The notes: generated by a model not told the origin, from the sequence alone. 64,000 nt of DNA from a bacterium (GCA_027482685.1 JAIXVU010000008.1:4652-68651); one strand, 5' to 3'; numbered from the stretch's first letter, positions 15,210 to 22,601 are shown. Numbers and translations: made by a program.

Positions 15210-15438
15210 ACGATAATCTTCTAGTTACTAATATCTATAGAATACTCCTAGCTATATACTTTTACACGTTCGGCTGTACACATATTTACAAAAGAAACAC
15301 TATGTTGTAGAATTCTAACGTGCGTAGTAACGGGTATACACCGATAACCTACACACAACAAGAGGGGTGGTAATGGTCGCAAAAAACCATAACACCTCAT
15401 TTTTCAATCCTCAAAGCATGAGGAGAAGAGTAATGACT

Positions 15439-15771
15439 CAAGAAGTTCAAGCTGTCGCATCAACGCGAATCACAGGATCGGAAGCAGGAGACGTGATTGC
15501 GCTGAGTACCGAACGGCCAATTGGTATCTCCTTTCCAATCAAGCGTTGTGGCAACAACACCACAATTACCTACAAGAACATTGAAGCTTACCGAGTAAGT
15601 GTCATCATCCCATCTGATGGGATGATGACAGTAACCATTGATCAAAGGCGTTTGCAGCCTTACAGCTGGCAATGCCAAGCCAAATTTCTGAAGTGGCTTG
15701 CCAATGCCAAGGGCTGTCAGAAAAATGGAGGGGTCTATGGTCATCCCGACTGCGAGTTCGTAAAGATCTAA
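15439..15771 (+). CDS. Hypothetical small Cys-containing protein on a GC-elevated islet
   Basis: AGGAG RBS 8 nt before ATG; ~48% GC against a ~38% background; four Cys; terminator immediately downstream. Confidence 0.4.
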   Translation, partial: QEVQAVASTRITGSEAGDVIALSTERPIGISFPIKRCGNNTTITYKNIEAYRVSVIIPSDGMMTVTIDQRRLQPYSWQCQAKFLKWLANAKGCQKNGGVYGHPDCEFVKI

Positions 15772-15908: not shown

Positions 15909-16364
15909 TTACTTCACATCCACTTTTACTTCCTCTGCATGAGATTTTACATTAACCTCTTCGTATATTTTCGCAATCTTACCTTGTTCGTCGATAAGAA
16001 AACTGGTGCGAGCTATTCCCATATACTCTCTCCCCATGAACTTTTTCTTTTGCCAGACGCCGTAGGCTTCACATACTTTCTTATCAACATCGGACAAAAT
16101 CGGAAAAGGTAACTCATATTTATCAGCAAACTTCTTATGGCTCTTTACATTATCTGCGCTTACCCCTAATATCACTAGTCCCATTTTCTGAAACTCATCA
16201 TGCCCATCACGAAAAGTACACGCTTCGGTAGTGCATCCTGGGGTATCGTCTTTTGGATAAAAATAGAGAAGTACTTTCTTTCCTTTATACATAGCAAGAC
16301 TGTGCTCGTTACCATCTTGATCTTGTAGTACAAAATCTGGTGCTTTTTCCTGTAATTTCATCAT
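15909..16364 (-). CDS. bcp: Peroxiredoxin, Bcp-type thiol peroxidase
   Basis: The active-site motif FYPKDDTPGCTTEAC is present. Confidence 0.85.
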   Translation of the reverse strand: MMKLQEKAPDFVLQDQDGNEHSLAMYKGKKVLLYFYPKDDTPGCTTEACTFRDGHDEFQKMGLVILGVSADNVKSHKKFADKYELPFPILSDVDKKVCEAYGVWQKKKFMGREYMGIARTSFLIDEQGKIAKIYEEVNVKSHAEEVKVDVK

Positions 16365-16380
16365 AGATTATAGTATAGCA

Positions 16381-17577
16381 TCATGCATGACTATGTGTAT
16401 GATGATGTGTGTGTGATGATGTTTCAGTAGTATCAAATTGCTTTCCCTTCATCAACAGTATAGCAATAAGTGTTGTCAGTGGGACAGCGCATAGTATGCC
16501 TATAGAACCCACAACTGCACGCACTATCTCAGTTGCTACACCCTCCCTGTTAATGAGCTCAAGAATAGGTGTCGTACTCGTATAGAGTAACAGCACAAGA
16601 GGAAGAGATGCACCAGTGTACGCAAGTATGAGCGTATTAATAACCGCACCGACATGATCTTTGCCTATTTTGATAGCTTTTGAATATACTTGTCCGAACG
16701 ACAATGACCCATTCATGCGAAGTATCTCTTGTACAACAGAGGCTTGCGTAATAGACGCGTCATCAATAACACCAATTACTCCAATAATAATCCCTCCGAT
16801 GAGGAGTGCGACAAAATCTAAGTTCCCTTGTGTTGCGATATTAAGGTAGACACTTTCCTCTTCTGAAAAACCAGTGAGGTTAGTTACCCATACTGCATAC
16901 TTTGCAAGAAGTACCGTGATAATAACTGCAATAGAACACCCGAGAAACGAAGCGGTTGTCATTCTGGTAAATCCATGCGTAAGGTACATCACCACAAAAA
17001 GAGACAGGAGTGCTCCTAATGTAGAAATAACAATAACATTACCGCCAGTTAAAAGCTCTGGAAAGAGAAACTTAAAAATTACCCCAAACGAAATAAAAAG
17101 CGCAATAAGTGCTAGAAATCCTTGCTTACCTCCTAACAATACCACTGCCACAATGAACACTACTAAAAGAAATATAAGTGCTGGTATTCTGTACGGTTCT
17201 TGAATAGAATAATACATCATGCCATTTGTGTATAAGTATTTTACGTAGACTTTATCGCCAACTTCAAGAGCAAATGCGGCGTCTTCTACTGTAATCTCTG
17301 TCCCTTTTTTTTCTTCACCTTGTAAAAACCTCACTTGTACTGTTTGGTATGTTGCCTTAGTGTTAGTGTTTGGCACTTCACGTACCTCTTTACTAAGAAT
17401 TTGTACAACTTCTCCTAAATACGTCCCCTCTCGTTCCTCATTACCATTCACTACGACTTTTACCGTTGATGTTGATATTCCACGGATGGTATCCAACGCG
17501 TGGGAAGGTACACCACCTACAAATGTGCTAAGTGCGACTACAAAAAACAGAGCAAGTCCTAGGCGCAATTTTTGCAT
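16381..17577 (-). CDS. Multi-pass membrane protein (YibE/F-like) with His-rich C-terminal tail
   Basis: Signal/TM, an extracytoplasmic domain, then 6 or more TM segments; tail HTHHHTHSHA; operonic with the Fur-family gene. Confidence 0.4.
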   Translation of the reverse strand: MQKLRLGLALFFVVALSTFVGGVPSHALDTIRGISTSTVKVVVNGNEEREGTYLGEVVQILSKEVREVPNTNTKATYQTVQVRFLQGEEKKGTEITVEDAAFALEVGDKVYVKYLYTNGMMYYSIQEPYRIPALIFLLVVFIVAVVLLGGKQGFLALIALFISFGVIFKFLFPELLTGGNVIVISTLGALLSLFVVMYLTHGFTRMTTASFLGCSIAVIITVLLAKYAVWVTNLTGFSEEESVYLNIATQGNLDFVALLIGGIIIGVIGVIDDASITQASVVQEILRMNGSLSFGQVYSKAIKIGKDHVGAVINTLILAYTGASLPLVLLLYTSTTPILELINREGVATEIVRAVVGSIGILCAVPLTTLIAILLMKGKQFDTTETSSHTHHHTHSHA

Positions 17578-17987
17578 AGTCCGTATATCTCCATTGAGTG
17601 CGTTGTTGTTTGTTTAAATTTTTTTGACTTTTTAAGCATTTTCTTAACAGTATCGTCAATCGAAATACCTTCAATTTTTTCAATAGTCTCACAGTTACTA
17701 CACACTAGCTGATGTGAAGCGCGCCCGGTTTCAAGTTCGTAATGTGCGTGTCCATGGTTAAAATCTAGTCTACGAAGTAATCCAGCTTCATGTAATGAAG
17801 CGAGATTTCGGTATACTGTTGCTTGATCAATGTTATCTTTCTTGCGAAGCGCATCCACGAGCTCATATACGGTTACAGGATTCTTAACTTTTGAAAGATA
17901 TCCAAGTACGGCCAGTCTGTGCCCTGTAACACGAAGTCCTGCTTCTTGTACCATTCCAGTCAATTCTTCTTGTGTGTAGGATGCCAT
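17559..17987 (-). CDS. Fur-family metalloregulator (Zur-like)
   Basis: Winged HTH (VYRNLASLHEAGLL), HxH, and CxxC...CxxC; divergent from the ZIP transporter gene. Confidence 0.8.
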   Translation of the reverse strand: MASYTQEELTGMVQEAGLRVTGHRLAVLGYLSKVKNPVTVYELVDALRKKDNIDQATVYRNLASLHEAGLLRRLDFNHGHAHYELETGRASHQLVCSNCETIEKIEGISIDDTVKKMLKKSKKFKQTTTHSMEIYGLCKNCA

Positions 17988-18079
17988 ATGAATACCATTA
18001 TATCATATACCAATATGCCTGCGAAGCATTTGCAAAAATTAAAAATATTTAACAAGAATAGCATTATCTATCCAGTATT

Positions 18080-18098
18080 AATGCAAATAACTTGCATT
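18080..18098. promoter_or_regulatory. Palindromic operator candidate (putative Zur box) overlapping a -10-like TATAAA
   Basis: AATGCAAATAACTTGCATT is a perfect 7-5-7 inverted repeat in the divergent zur/ZIP intergenic region. Confidence 0.5.
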
Positions 18099-18154
18099 TT
18101 ATAAAATCATACATTATAGTATACTTATCCTTCAACCACCTACGAGATAACGAT

Positions 18155-18853
18155 ATGACATCATCTCTAATTCTACTCATTATTAGTACAAGTGCACTCC
18201 CTTTACTATCTATAACTGCAGTAGTGCTTCGCCGTAACCTACTAGAAGGAAAATGGAAGCTGGTCTTTCTTGTACTTGGGTTAGCGCTTCTAATGTTCAG
18301 TGTTATAAGCGCATTTCACGACCACGGTGAAGAGCTTGGGCTTTCTGATATTGTAACAGGTGTGGTAACTGCGTTACTAACTTTTCTTATTCTTTCTCGA
18401 TTCAGTCATAAGCACAAACATGAAAAAGAGCTAGAAGGCGCAAAAGGTATTGTCATAAGTGAAGCATTCCACTCGCTTATTGACGGAGCTCTCATCGGAG
18501 CAACATTTCTGATAAGTCCAGTAGTTGGAAGTGCGGTAGCATTAGGGATACTTGTTCATGAATTACCAAAAATAATAGGCACACTAACTGTTCTTAGATC
18601 ACTTGGACTATCTACTAAGAAAACAATTCTCTACGGCACACTGGCACAAATCGGTGTCCCTATCGCCGCTCTGTTTGTATACCTACTCGGTAAAGAAATT
18701 AACCCTGAGCAATTTCACACACTTGAGATAGCGAGTATCTCATCTCTTGGAGCAATTGTACTTTGGATAATTTACCTTGAGATTAGATTCCATCGAAAGC
18801 ACGATCACAAACACAGTGAACGTGACGATAACGGAACAGCACATTCGCATTAA
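18155..18853 (+). CDS. ZIP-family metal (zinc) transporter; ORF-track start 18092 is a TTG inside the operator, ATG at 18155 preferred
   Basis: HELPKIIG motif, multiple TM segments, His-rich loop and tail (HKHKHEKE, HRKHDHKHSE). Confidence 0.7.
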   Translation: MTSSLILLIISTSALPLLSITAVVLRRNLLEGKWKLVFLVLGLALLMFSVISAFHDHGEELGLSDIVTGVVTALLTFLILSRFSHKHKHEKELEGAKGIVISEAFHSLIDGALIGATFLISPVVGSAVALGILVHELPKIIGTLTVLRSLGLSTKKTILYGTLAQIGVPIAALFVYLLGKEINPEQFHTLEIASISSLGAIVLWIIYLEIRFHRKHDHKHSERDDNGTAHSH

Positions 18854-18859
18854 GTTGCA

Positions 18860-18886
18860 AGCGGGCAAAATCACGCCCGCTTTTTA
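18860..18886 (+). terminator. Rho-independent terminator
   Basis: AGCGGGC-N8-GCCCGCT followed by TTTTT. Confidence 0.65.
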
Positions 18887-18909
18887 TATGCGAATAACTT
18901 GCATATAAT
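18887..18909 (+). promoter_or_regulatory. Second operator candidate overlapping a -10 TATAAT
   Basis: TATGCGAATAACTTGCATA-TAAT shares the core AATAACTTGCAT with the 18080 site. Confidence 0.5.
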
Positions 18910-18933
18910 TTATTTTTAAGCTAAGATATAGCT

Positions 18934-19770
18934 ATGAAAATTGCATTTGTAGGAAAAGGCGGTAGCGGGAAAAGCTCCGTATCATGGCTCGCTGTTAAAA
19001 CCCTAGAAGATATGGGTATTTCTACCCTTGCGATTGATGCTGACCATAACATGGACTTAACCAGCAACCTCGGGCTCGATCCAGAAAAGACGCCGCTCAT
19101 GCATAAGACTGAACGTGAGTTTATGGAAGCCGTTGGCCTTGGAGAGAACGATAGATTAGTAACACTTACAACAAAAGAGGGTTCACTACCTGAGTTTTCC
19201 TTTAACCCAAAAGATAGTTATACAGCCTCCATTACTACATCAATAAGTAAAACAGTAGACCTTATCAATATTGGCCTTGGAAGTCCAGATGTCCTATATA
19301 CAACAAAGTGCGCTCATGCTCTGTCTGGGCCGCTTAAATTCTATCTTGGTTTACTCAATGCAAAAGATGATGTTGTTATTATCGATAGTGTAGCAGGAAC
19401 AGACATGATGAATTATGGTTTGTATGCTGGTATTGATGCGGTGATAGGAGTAGTTGAACCTCATCGCAATAGTGTCAAGGTGTTCGAACAAATAGCTGAC
19501 CTCTGCAGAAAAGTAGATATCCCTTTCTTTGGGGTCATCAACAAGCCTACAGATAATGAGTTTTATCAAGGAGTAAAGGAAAAGTATGGTAAAAAAATAA
19601 TCGGAGAGATTCCATTTGATTCAGCTATCATGGAATATAACTTCACCAAACTTTCAACAGAAACCAAAGGGGCCATGAAAGCTGTGATGGAAAAACTCCA
19701 AGCATTACCAAAAAGAAATGGTCTTTCGAGCATTTACAAATTTCAACATTCTATCAAAGAAAATATTTAA
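18934..19770 (+). CDS. CooC/MinD/ParA-family P-loop ATPase (possible metallochaperone)
   Basis: Deviant Walker A (AFVGKGGSGKSS) and overall similarity to CooC-type maturation ATPases. Confidence 0.6.
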   Translation: MKIAFVGKGGSGKSSVSWLAVKTLEDMGISTLAIDADHNMDLTSNLGLDPEKTPLMHKTEREFMEAVGLGENDRLVTLTTKEGSLPEFSFNPKDSYTASITTSISKTVDLINIGLGSPDVLYTTKCAHALSGPLKFYLGLLNAKDDVVIIDSVAGTDMMNYGLYAGIDAVIGVVEPHRNSVKVFEQIADLCRKVDIPFFGVINKPTDNEFYQGVKEKYGKKIIGEIPFDSAIMEYNFTKLSTETKGAMKAVMEKLQALPKRNGLSSIYKFQHSIKENI

Positions 19771-19776
19771 TTTGCG

Positions 19777-20433
19777 TTGGCAACTATGTGCGGAGTATTT
19801 CCTCATATGGTTGCCAACGGAAGTTGGCACTTGCTCTTTCAACCAACTGGAGAAACAACCATGTGCGGAATCGTACACCGTCCCACTCGTCGGAAGGATC
19901 TCGATCCGTCCACGTTCCCCAAGCTCTCAGTGTCTGCTGTGAGCAAGATCGTAGCCGCCTGTGAAGATGTCCATATCCCACATCTGGCGACTGCGCTTGT
20001 CCTTCACTTTGCCAATCACATGGCAGGCAAGAAGTGCTTCACGCTGGAAGTGATCCCGTTTGCTCTCTACGAGGGTGATAAGCGGATTATCTCGCGTGAG
20101 AGCGTGGAGTCCGAGGCTGCGGTGATACATCTAGCCATGGCCAGCACTGTCCGCCGCACCATCAACGCAGAACTGGCTGAGGTGGGGCTTGTCTTCGAGC
20201 TTGGTCACTGCTGTGATATTCAGATGTGGGAGCTCACTCGTGAAGAGGAGGCGGCCACGATGTCTCATGACTGGAACATCTGGCGTGCTGATAAGCTCCG
20301 CATGCTGACGAAAGATGCGGAAGAGATCGTTTCGTCGGAGGAGTTCATCTCCATTGCCGGCAATTTCAACCGAGATCTGATCAGCACGATGATCTCACTC
20401 GCCAGTGAGCAGCTGACACATGTCGACCACTGA
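19777..20433 (+). CDS. Hypothetical Cys/His-containing protein, GC-rich (~52%)
   Basis: Coding-like; no recognisable domain; abrupt compositional shift from the flanks. Confidence 0.45.
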   Translation: MATMCGVFPHMVANGSWHLLFQPTGETTMCGIVHRPTRRKDLDPSTFPKLSVSAVSKIVAACEDVHIPHLATALVLHFANHMAGKKCFTLEVIPFALYEGDKRIISRESVESEAAVIHLAMASTVRRTINAELAEVGLVFELGHCCDIQMWELTREEEAATMSHDWNIWRADKLRMLTKDAEEIVSSEEFISIAGNFNRDLISTMISLASEQLTHVDH

Positions 20434-20791
20434 TAAGTCATTCAGTGCTTTTCTGGCTGAGAATGCAGGCCATTTCCTTGAGCTTTGTCTTTTGGAAGGG
20501 TTTGTGTTCTCGGTGAGAAAAAGTGCTCACCGTATTACAATACGCTGTGCTCTTCCAAGCGGGATTGTCCGATTCGTCATCTTTGACGATCATCGGGTAG
20601 CAAGCCCCCACGGTGGCAAGCCACATGTGTGCAATCAGTGGTACAAAGCAGTTGGTGATCCTCTTTCGTTTACGATGGGGGAAGAAGTCAACGATGCTTC
20701 ACGACTTCAAAGTGTGCTACGAGCAACCGCTGTCATGTGTCTCACACAAAGCGAGGCATACAACGACATGAAAGCTCGTATCTTCCCTTAA
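20420..20791 (+). CDS. Hypothetical protein, GC-rich, translationally coupled to the upstream ORF
   Basis: 14-nt overlap with the previous ORF; terminator follows. Confidence 0.4.
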   Translation: MSTTDKSFSAFLAENAGHFLELCLLEGFVFSVRKSAHRITIRCALPSGIVRFVIFDDHRVASPHGGKPHVCNQWYKAVGDPLSFTMGEEVNDASRLQSVLRATAVMCLTQSEAYNDMKARIFP

Positions 20792-20807
20792 CCAAGGGTT
20801 TCATTCC

Positions 20808-20839
20808 GAAAGGCGTCCTCGAGACGCCTTTTCTTTTTC
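20808..20839 (+). terminator. Rho-independent terminator
   Basis: AAAGGCGTC-CTCGA-GACGCCTTT followed by TTCTTTTTCTTT. Confidence 0.75.
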
Positions 20840-21086
20840 TTTATATTTGATAGTATTATACTCACTTGGCAATCAAGCCAAGAGGAGAATGCTTTGCCGA
20901 GTTCTCGAAACCAAAAGTACACAGTACCTCGGTGCACTCGCAAGAAGTACGAAAGAGATCGTGCAACACCAGCGCTCAATGAGCAGATGGCAAAGACCAT
21001 CATCATCGGCCGTGGGAGGCAAACCAACAACTAAGGTCTCATTCTTAAACTCAAAGATCGCTACATGCGATCTTTTGTCTTTCAAG

Positions 21087-22259: not shown

Positions 22260-22601
22260 ATGATTCTCCGTATCGCAGCACTTTGCTTGCTGGCTTCTCT
22301 CCCTGTCTTATCTCAGGCTCAACTCCATGGACACCGTCACCATGGCAATCATGGTGGGGTAGATGTGTACATCACGTTTGGTGCTCCTGTATGGCAGCCT
22401 CGCATATGGGCACCACCAACTGTAGTGTATATACAGCCACCTCCTCCGCAAGCTTTCTACCGAGATGTGAGGTATCTCGCACCTCCGTCTATATATTACA
22501 GGCAGGTACCTGTGTATCAGCTAGCCCCTCCTTTTTGTCGTACAGTGGTCTACTACTGGATCGACAATATGGGGCAAGGGTGGCAAACCTGTTACCACTG
22601 A
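22260..22601 (+). CDS. Small secreted His/Pro/Tyr-rich protein, GC-elevated
   Basis: Signal peptide MILRIAALCLLASLPVLSQA; mature part rich in P, Y, V and H. Confidence 0.5.
   Translation: MILRIAALCLLASLPVLSQAQLHGHRHHGNHGGVDVYITFGAPVWQPRIWAPPTVVYIQPPPPQAFYRDVRYLAPPSIYYRQVPVYQLAPPFCRTVVYYWIDNMGQGWQTCYH

Follow-up and report, generated by a model that had tools for sequence, protein, structure and literature searches.

A probable zinc-limitation regulon in Paceibacteria with a Fur-family regulator, a CooC-like ATPase and a variable slot for small cysteine-containing partner proteins

In this study, we analysed a 64,000-nucleotide stretch of bacterial DNA (GCA_027482685.1 JAIXVU010000008.1:4652-68651; hereafter the window), which by its homologues derives from a member of the Paceibacteria (Patescibacteria, candidate phyla radiation or CPR). 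It carries a cluster in which genes for a Fur-family regulator, a YibE/F-family membrane protein, a ZIP-like metal importer and a CooC-like P-loop ATPase of the SIMIBI/MinD class are accompanied by a recurring inverted-repeat operator, and in which the ATPase gene is followed by two GC-rich genes, orfA and orfB. We consider this cluster to be probably, though not firmly, a zinc-limitation regulon with a CooC-type metallochaperone module. In the proposed mechanism, the Fur-family repressor, co-transcribed with the YibE/F protein and probably with a Bcp peroxiredoxin, would bind metal and, once metallated, would occupy a 6-5-6 palindrome at three promoters, namely its own and those of the ZIP-like importer and the ATPase operon, and repression would be lifted when the metal is scarce. 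ATP binding would then drive dimerisation of the ATPase, by analogy with CooC1, and Cys126-x-His128 of each subunit would contribute to an interfacial Cys2His2 metal site from which a client would receive the metal upon hydrolysis, with OrfA and OrfB as candidate metal-handling partners or first acceptors of the ATPase. Our comparisons establish what the genes are, that the operator is conserved, that Cys-x-His of the ATPase stands at the place of the CooC1 Cys-x-Cys, which genes occur together and that the composition of the downstream genes is anomalous; repression, the nature of the metal, its ATP-dependent transfer and the part played by the partners are inferred.

The operators provide the strongest link among these genes. 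A sequence-only reading of the window had described two palindromic operators, the first of them as perfect. Sites are indeed present where it placed them, with AATGCAAATAACTTGCATT beginning at 18080 and TATGCGAATAACTTGCATA at 18887, but they are not 19-bp palindromes; each is a 7-5-7 inverted repeat with a 6-5-6 core of the pattern (A/T)TGCAA-N5-TTGCA(T/A), and the second site also has a mismatch in one arm. The 17-mer common to both, ATGCRAATAACTTGCAT, has just two occurrences in the 64 kb window, at 18081 and 18888, and a search allowing up to three mismatches still found these two sites only (shuffled sequences gave 0.68 sites). Their proposed positions at promoters are correct: the ZIP promoter has its -10-like TATAAA directly next to operator 2 (ATGCAAATAACTTGCAT, 18081..18097), and the TATAAT of the ATPase promoter is overlapped by the 3' end of operator 3 (ATGCGAATAACTTGCAT, 18888..18904). 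A relaxed motif search added a weaker site that had been missed before, operator 1 (TGCGAAGCATTTGCA, 18020..18034), which covers the -35 element of a minus-strand fur promoter predicted by a promoter scan (TTCGCA-17-TATAAT, 18025..17997). Because operator 1 lies over the fur-yibEF promoter, the repressor probably regulates its own gene.

The motif is shared well beyond the window. We scanned relatives using one genome per species, which gave 301 ATPase relatives, and kept 80 loci (designated here by L numbers). In L006, a locus from another genome with an ATPase 69% identical to that of the window, the motif stands at the same two promoters, as ATGCGAGTTATTTGCAT before the ZIP gene and as ATGCAAGTCATTTGCAT before the ATPase gene. 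The pattern [TC]GC[AG]A-N5-T[TC]GC[AG] was counted over the 125 nt preceding the ATPase gene in the 70 non-cyanobacterial loci, mostly from Patescibacteria, where it occurred 73 times, or 8.34 per kb versus 0.059 per kb in the other 541 kb, an enrichment of approximately 140-fold; many of the matches elsewhere precede ZIP or COG0523 genes. A site was found upstream of the ATPase gene in 46 of these 70 loci and in 29 of the 32 with an adjacent fur gene, and the consensus over the 73 sites is aAA-TGCAA-mTnAn-TTGCA-wT. Typical loci contain a proximal copy whose end lies 2-6 nt ahead of the ATPase start codon and a second copy about 50 nt further upstream. The comparative evidence supports the view that these sites serve as genuine operators in a Fur-family regulon, whose architecture we regard as well supported on the same grounds. 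As a separate observation, no Shine-Dalgarno sequence is visible at the proximal copy in most relatives (L007-L086, 130 nt upstream), which suggests that most of these ATPase mRNAs are leaderless or have a very short leader, with the operator lying over the transcription start.

The gene order is conserved together with the operator. A Fur-family gene adjoins the ATPase gene, usually divergently, in at least 42 of the 80 loci and at ATPase identities down to 33%, YibE/F is encoded near the ATPase in approximately 35, and a ZIP gene is syntenic in approximately 14; the most conserved trio in Patescibacteria is Fur, YibE/F and the ATPase. In the window, the regulator (17559..17987, minus strand) matches the Fur-family profile over its full length (PF01475, 80.5 bits against a cut-off of 23.1, positions 1-121/121) and has 25 Fur-family matches in the PDB. 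The start of the YibE/F gene (16381..17577, minus strand; PF07907, 221.6 bits) overlaps the fur stop by 19 nt, and 16 nt further downstream lies a Bcp/AhpC-TSA peroxiredoxin gene (15909..16364, minus strand; Pfam families taken from the identical locus L001), with which the fur-yibEF transcript probably ends, in a gene order that recurs in L006, L022, L025, L027 and L029-L031. On the opposite strand, 18155..18853 (plus strand) encodes the 232-aa ZIP-like importer, followed by an intrinsic terminator in the terminator scan (18859..18882, plus strand; a GCGGGC stem, then TTTTT). The divergent arrangement of a Fur-family gene and a ZIP transporter gene, as first described, is thus firm with respect to Fur and weaker with respect to ZIP: the TM4 and TM5 motifs of ZIP proteins (HxxxDG and HExP) are present in the translation as HSLIDG and HELPK, but the Pfam Zip profile scores only 26.3 bits against a cut-off of 35.1. 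The C-termini of both membrane proteins are His-rich (SSHTHHHTHSHA at 16381-16420 in the YibE/F protein and HRKHDHKHSERDDNGTAHSH at 18790-18853 in the ZIP-like protein), which fits metal transport.

These tails, together with the conserved trio, could also be accommodated if the ATPase were not a chaperone but the soluble energising subunit of YibE/F or ZIP, as in an ArsA-ArsB-like metal pump; ArsA is likewise a SIMIBI protein and a weak match to the ATPase in Pfam and the PDB, and the His-rich tails of both membrane proteins would be cytoplasmic. However, YibE/F and ZIP are both missing from the surroundings of the cyanobacterial, archaeal and Bdellovibrionales homologues, the YibE/F gene belongs to the fur transcript and not to that of the ATPase, and the Cys-x-His motif (CxH) of the ATPase occupies the position of the transferable metal site of CooC. 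We therefore judge a pump subunit improbable and return to the ATPase as a putative metallochaperone.

The ATPase (18934..19770, plus strand; 278 aa) has a deviant Walker A motif with the signature lysine (GKGGSGKS) and matches CbiA/ParA-type domains in Pfam. Its assignment as CooC-like rather than MinD/ParA, which had been suggested from the sequence, was upheld by the comparisons. A PDB search with the single sequence returned CooC1 (3kje) at E = 4e-9, and with the family profile the value for CooC1 was 4.9e-13, as against 0.003 for MinD and 0.001 for NifH. Aligned by hhalign with CooC1 (sequence confirmed by exact look-up as 3KJE_A), the family gave 98% probability, E = 2e-13 and 31% identity over 214 columns, with C126 placed on C112 and H128 on C114 of CooC1 (C126-A-H128 versus C112-Y-C114); a search of plasmids for real CooC genes to align gave no match. 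All 78 evaluable relatives have the Cys-x-His without exception, many of them reading Cys-x-His-x-His, and they span Patescibacteria, cyanobacteria, DPANN archaea and a Bdellovibrionales genome. In CooC1, the Cys-x-Cys motif reportedly binds nickel or zinc across an ATP-induced dimer.

The likeness to CooC of Carboxydothermus hydrogenoformans and Rhodospirillum rubrum, which serves ATP-dependent nickel insertion into carbon monoxide dehydrogenase, therefore comprises the MinD-class fold, the deviant Walker A motif and a metal motif at the equivalent position. The differences are equally clear: Cys-x-His, often extended to Cys-x-His-x-His, replaces the Cys-x-Cys of CooC, the window ATPase has an insertion of approximately 25 residues relative to CooC1, and its gene stands under a Fur-family operator together with metal importers, or with zinc-regulon genes in other phyla. 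No carbon monoxide dehydrogenase or acetyl-CoA synthase genes were found in the window region or in the 80 mapped and scanned loci.

A weak match to a PHROG ParA-like family might instead suggest that the ATPase is an ordinary ParA/MinD positioning protein, beside which orfA and orfB would have landed by chance as an unrelated mobile cassette. CooC1, however, scores far above MinD and ParA, and the corresponding equivalog models remain far under their cut-offs (minD_arch 29.8 versus 201.75, minD_bact 13.8 versus 212.9 and ParA_partition 14.6 versus 180), so that by profile and PDB scores the protein does not cluster with ParA/MinD. The invariant CxH and the Fur-type operator on the ATPase promoter speak against this account as well, and together with the behaviour of the partner genes described below they make it very improbable.

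Within the metallochaperone interpretation, the obvious comparison is with the COG0523 GTPases (ZigA, ZagA, YeiR and Zng1), which are likewise nucleotide-dependent proteins of the SIMIBI class with a Cys-containing metal motif under Fur-family control during metal limitation, and which often share a gene cluster with the CxH ATPase. The window ATPase is nevertheless of the MinD class and not a G3E GTPase; it carries CxH instead of CxCC and has no cobW or CobW_C match in Pfam. The idea that it takes the place of a COG0523 protein did not survive the comparison of relatives, because the two are adjacent or co-operonic in several of them: in some Patescibacteria the gene immediately preceding that of the ATPase encodes a COG0523 protein, and L040, L044 and L046 have true COG0523 genes as neighbours distinct from the ATPase gene. 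The ATPase thus accompanies COG0523 and is no substitute for it.

In cyanobacteria and the Bdellovibrionales genome, the ATPase gene is found with genes for COG0523 (CobW plus CobW_C), FolE (GTP cyclohydrolase I), HemB, a threonyl-tRNA synthetase (ThrRS) paralogue, a Metallophos protein and a Fur-family regulator; these are the genes reported for the Zur regulon of Anabaena (PMC10957091). Zur-type 7-1-7 boxes were seen only before cyanobacterial and archaeal homologues, for example TGATTATCATAATCA in cyanobacterial loci and one box in a Pacearchaeota locus. In three Calothrix/Dulcicalothrix loci (L054, L050 and L058), a second CbiA-type ATPase of approximately 333-340 aa, 26-27% identical, is encoded close to the CxH ATPase, and HemB, FolE, ThrRS-paralogue and COG0523-like genes with 7-1-7 boxes lie nearby. 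In two Paceibacteria, a gene of the nicotianamine-synthase family (PF03059, 8e-47) directly follows the ATPase gene (L012:4847-5605 and L021:2533-3291). Both of these loci also encode, after this gene, a Cys-rich protein ending in ...DHDCEVSCTC, and the genes may specify an opine-type metallophore pathway in CPR bacteria.

It is from this gene context, comprising the ZIP-like importer, the His-rich tails, COG0523, nicotianamine synthase and the 7-1-7 boxes of the relatives, that zinc is favoured as the sensed metal, and we accordingly hold zinc to be the probable but by no means certain signal. Candidate targets for the control of zinc uptake or zinc sparing would be the ZIP-like importer in the window, with its sub-threshold score, and COG0523 and nicotianamine synthase in relatives. 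By contrast, the label 'Zur-like', which had been attached to the regulon at first sight, is borne out neither by the regulator nor by its box, which has the 6-5-6 and not the 7-1-7 layout. The two CxxC pairs of the regulator would form a structural zinc site, whereas its sensing site is atypical. The regulatory zinc ligands of MtZur (2o03) that we compared were D62, C76, H81 and H83 as well as H80, H82, E101 and H118; D62 is replaced by R, C76 by E, H81 by S and H83 by Q, and only H82 is kept. Alignments with MtZur, VcFur and BsPerR alike show most of the canonical sensing ligands replaced in the window clade (RASHQLVC), whereas most other members of the regulator family keep HHHHH ahead of the CxxC, as HHHHH-x-x-C. 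Since these ligands are replaced and NCBIfam scores do not tell PerR from Fur or Zur, the regulator protein does not reveal the metal.

The operator itself raises the question of nickel. The Nur box of Streptomyces coelicolor, defined by DNase footprinting, is tTGCaa-N5-ttGCAA, and the 6-5-6 layout has been described as peculiar to Nur orthologues within the Fur family and as tied to their nickel site (PMC2691836). The core of our operators, TGCAA-N5-TTGCA, agrees with this box, and both regulators belong to the Fur family. The same architecture could thus serve nickel, with the regulator as a functional analogue of Nur and with the ATPase and its Cys2-bearing partner supplying a nickel enzyme with its metal. 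Among proteins of solved structure, the ATPase comes closest to the nickel-insertion factor CooC1, and OrfA begins with Met-Cys2. N-terminal Cys2 is typical of nickel chaperones, among which CooC is one, and the Met-Cys2 of OrfA resembles the N-termini of CooT and HypB.

The residues of the regulator do not follow the box, however. In a BLASTP comparison with the Nur sequence, which was verified by exact look-up, the two proteins are 28% identical; His70 and His72 of the Nur nickel site correspond to R73 and D75, the M-site residues His33, His86, His88 and His90 have no equivalents, and His126, as H130, is the sole one conserved, while the window regulator retains its two CxxC pairs. The regulated genes also differ, being ZIP and ATPase genes here and sodF and nik in Streptomyces. 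Moreover, homologous ATPases are located in zinc-regulon-like clusters (COG0523, FolE, HemB and the ThrRS paralogue), no nickel enzyme and no Nik or CbiMNQO transporter was seen in any examined locus, and a Cys2His2 interface is a classical zinc site. Nickel remains a live alternative because of the Nur-type box, the relationship to CooC and the Cys2 N-terminus of OrfA, but as the sensed metal it is less likely than zinc, and a nickel-delivering version of the whole system seems to us unlikely.

A different possibility is that the regulator is a PerR-like peroxide sensor and that the module answers oxidative stress and not metal scarcity. PerR supplies its best matches in the PDB and in NCBIfam (BsPerR at 9.5e-15 in the PDB, followed by MtZur at 2.8e-11), a Bcp peroxiredoxin is encoded in its operon, and genes for DsbA-like and SIMPL proteins lie nearby; in addition, an actinobacterial protein of the SCO5389 family, to which two of the partner families introduced below (F1 and F7) are related, doubles under redox stress. 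The PerR residues His37, His91 and His93 are not conserved, though, the box is not a 7-1-7 Per box, and the targets (ZIP, COG0523 and nicotianamine synthase) are metal-acquisition genes. Peroxide sensing is consequently a distinctly improbable explanation, and regulation by scarce zinc remains the one that we prefer.

Downstream of the ATPase, the GC-rich stretch noted from the sequence is real, with a GC content of 0.519 at 19777-20791 compared with 0.412 for the window. OrfA (19861..20433, plus strand; 190 aa) had been assigned a start at 19777; its most likely start is instead the ATG at 19861 (MCGIVH...), preceded by GGAG 8 nt upstream, as all homologues are about 190 aa long and begin with M-C-G-I-V. 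Its conserved residues are M-C2-G-I-V, C34-E35 and G-H116-C117-C118-D119. orfB (20420..20791, plus strand; 123 aa) shares 14 nt with the end of orfA, an overlap suggestive of translational coupling, and its 47 homologues, all of approximately 123 aa, share the invariant residues C43, H58, H64, H69, C71 and C107. Substitutions among orfB orthologues fall on codon positions 1:2:3 in the proportion 827:654:2228, and orfA has a like third-position bias; both are genuine coding genes under purifying selection. The orfA family is tiny, with 13 word-index matches and 15 cluster representatives among 1.84 billion proteins. AlphaFold2 models reached a pLDDT of 92.9 for OrfA (13 sequences) and 89.4 for OrfB (28 sequences), yet Foldseek found no significant match to either of them in the PDB, nor to OrfA among the viral models of BFVD, and no family in Pfam, NCBIfam, PHROG or PADLOC matches either protein.

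Several other identities were considered for this stretch and rejected. The MCGIV start recalls class-II amidotransferases, for which Pfam and NCBIfam gave no support in the case of OrfA. A phage or defence origin of the two genes was set aside given the lack of PHROG, PADLOC and BFVD matches, and a structured RNA was dismissed because the third-position substitution bias shows coding (at the Rfam gathering thresholds, the window contains only five tRNAs, all outside the GC-rich stretch). Spurious or opposite-strand open reading frames (ORFs) were likewise rejected, as minus-strand ORFs in this interval do not exceed 67 aa.

Across the relatives, the position directly after the ATPase gene is a variable slot. 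In approximately 50 of the 80 loci, it holds a gene for a small protein that has CC or CxC in its centre and a Cys at one end, and these proteins fall into several families: F1 (21 loci; MSLPS...NCC...ADC-end), the orfA-like F2 (13 loci and the window; MC..., HCCD or CDCGC), F5 (6 loci; MC..., HGCGC), F6 (5 loci; M-x-C..., N-x-CC-x-G-C), F7 (4 loci; MSL...LCC...DC-end) and F8 (2 loci; CGGCPPCC). F7 and F1 match PF20704 'KH_NucS_shadow' and NCBIfam NF040488 'SCO5389 family' (36.7 bits against a cut-off of 27 in L027), a family that was once thought spurious, was moved from AntiFam to Pfam as real and is uncharacterised. The likeness to the SCO5389 family consists in F7 and F1 proteins matching its profile from the slot occupied by orfA in the window; OrfA and OrfB themselves have no match to it.

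Close relatives with identical flanks (Bcp-YibE/F-Fur-ZIP-ATPase ... MnmA) illustrate how freely the content of the slot varies. It is empty in L030 and L022; it contains orfA and orfB in the window and L009, orfA and an unrelated 118-aa ORF in L006, F7 and F10 in L027 and L029, a long F2 plus F9 in L015, and something else in L025. In 10 loci, orfB comes after a gene of F1 or after orfA, and the 14-nt overlap at its start is kept in both contexts, as seen by comparing the junction at 20405-20440 with L008:5240-5275, where the upstream protein ends in ...VDH* (OrfA) or ...ADC* (F1); the homologue P0122 ends in ...NADC. Such a mosaic junction suggests recombination just upstream of orfB and swapping of modules. 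The third-position GC content (GC3) is 0.66 in orfA and 0.44 in orfB compared with about 0.3 in their neighbours (0.27-0.34), and F1 in L008 and F2 in L020 have values of 0.79 and 0.76 next to ATPase genes at 0.33 and 0.28. Partner genes usually have such very high GC3, but those in L011 are fully AT-adapted.

The partner slot thus appears to be exchanged horizontally, and the part of the sequence-only reading that took orfA and orfB for a horizontally acquired cassette accords with their composition and with the variability of the slot, which fit repeated exchange. What does not hold is that the cassette is an arbitrary appendage, since its genes are tied to the ATPase family and not placed at random: some 50 of the 80 loci have a partner gene directly behind that of the ATPase, and orfB is repeatedly found with it. 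This also bears on the chance association with a positioning ATPase mentioned above. The odd GC3, a slot that is empty or otherwise filled in close relatives and the tiny orfA family would all suit such an account, but the recurrence of orfB and of the partner families directly after this ATPase family in divergent genomes, and the absence of PHROG, PADLOC and viral-fold matches for OrfA and OrfB, do not.

How the partners are transcribed relative to the ATPase is complicated by a long imperfect RNA hairpin in the gap between the ATPase gene and orfA (19768..19826, plus strand; repeat search and RNA folding). It had been supposed that no terminator intervenes there, and indeed no U-tract follows the stem, but the hairpin is very stable, and the predicted fold of the 106-nt region reaches -43.5 kcal/mol (z = -6.0). 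Within the hairpin, the start region of orfA recurs as a 14-nt near-duplicate (CAACTATGTGCGGA and CAACCATGTGCGGA, at 19781-19794 and 19856-19869), which is the reason that gene callers give three different orfA starts. At the corresponding place in L006 there is also a hairpin, though of different sequence. This element may terminate some of the transcripts or affect RNA stability, and could in that way set the ratio of ATPase to partner. The ATPase-orfA-orfB unit is closed by an intrinsic terminator (20808..20832, plus strand; terminator scan), with a 10-bp stem followed by CTTTTTCTTT.

A number of these results weigh against a zinc-limitation regulon with a metallochaperone module and temper our confidence in it. 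The regulator has lost most of the canonical sensing ligands of Zur, Fur/PerR and Nur, the layout and core of the operator are those of the nickel-specific Nur box, PerR is the regulator's best PDB match, and a peroxiredoxin is encoded in its operon; the ZIP assignment, moreover, lies under the Pfam threshold. On the side of the module, L030 and L022 lack a partner gene, so partners are dispensable for the ATPase, and the hairpin makes co-transcription of the ATPase gene with orfA likely but not certain. A homology of OrfA to the other partner families was pursued and left as unproven, since hhalign with F1/F7 gave a probability of 2% and aligned only the strand with the CC motif.

The allocation of zinc, or nickel, inside cells is an open problem, and to our knowledge COG0523 GTPases are the only proposed zinc chaperones, with few clients known. 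If our interpretation is true, CooC-related ATPases with an invariant interfacial CxH, tied to metal-starvation regulons in organisms as different as CPR bacteria, cyanobacteria and DPANN archaea, would represent a second and testable route, with candidate partner or client proteins encoded next to the ATPase. We found no description of the CxH ATPase family as part of a Zur or Fur regulon in the zinc-chaperone reviews and comparative papers that could be searched, which do not cover the whole literature. A broader and more speculative proposal, which we offer tentatively and to which we give distinctly less credence, is that these ATPases form an unrecognised second class of nucleotide-dependent zinc metallochaperones, present in several phyla alongside COG0523 and equipped with exchanged Cys-rich partners of novel fold, and that a Patescibacteria Fur lineage independently uses a Nur-type 6-5-6 operator. 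The 6-5-6 'Nur-type' box proves not to be confined to Nur orthologues bearing the nickel site. Patescibacteria, in which almost no regulation has been defined by experiment, gain a concrete operator and regulon, and the SCO5389/PF20704 family a functional lead.

Several further ORFs flank the cluster. A GC-rich (0.46) orphan ORF of 132 aa without a Pfam match lies between the SIMPL and Bcp genes (15373-15771, plus strand); in L006, this position is filled by an unrelated 143-aa ORF, making it a second variable slot of odd composition. Between the orfB terminator and mnmA, there is a small basic ORF of 46 aa with no family match (20894-21034, plus strand), followed by a terminator-like hairpin at 21053-21075; public assemblies call no gene there. 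Further downstream, a GC-rich (0.51) ORF of 113 aa (22260-22601, plus strand), with no operator upstream and no Pfam match, has a signal-peptide-like N-terminus, the His-rich stretch HGHRHHGNHGG and a Pro-rich body, features with which it might encode a secreted metal-binding protein.

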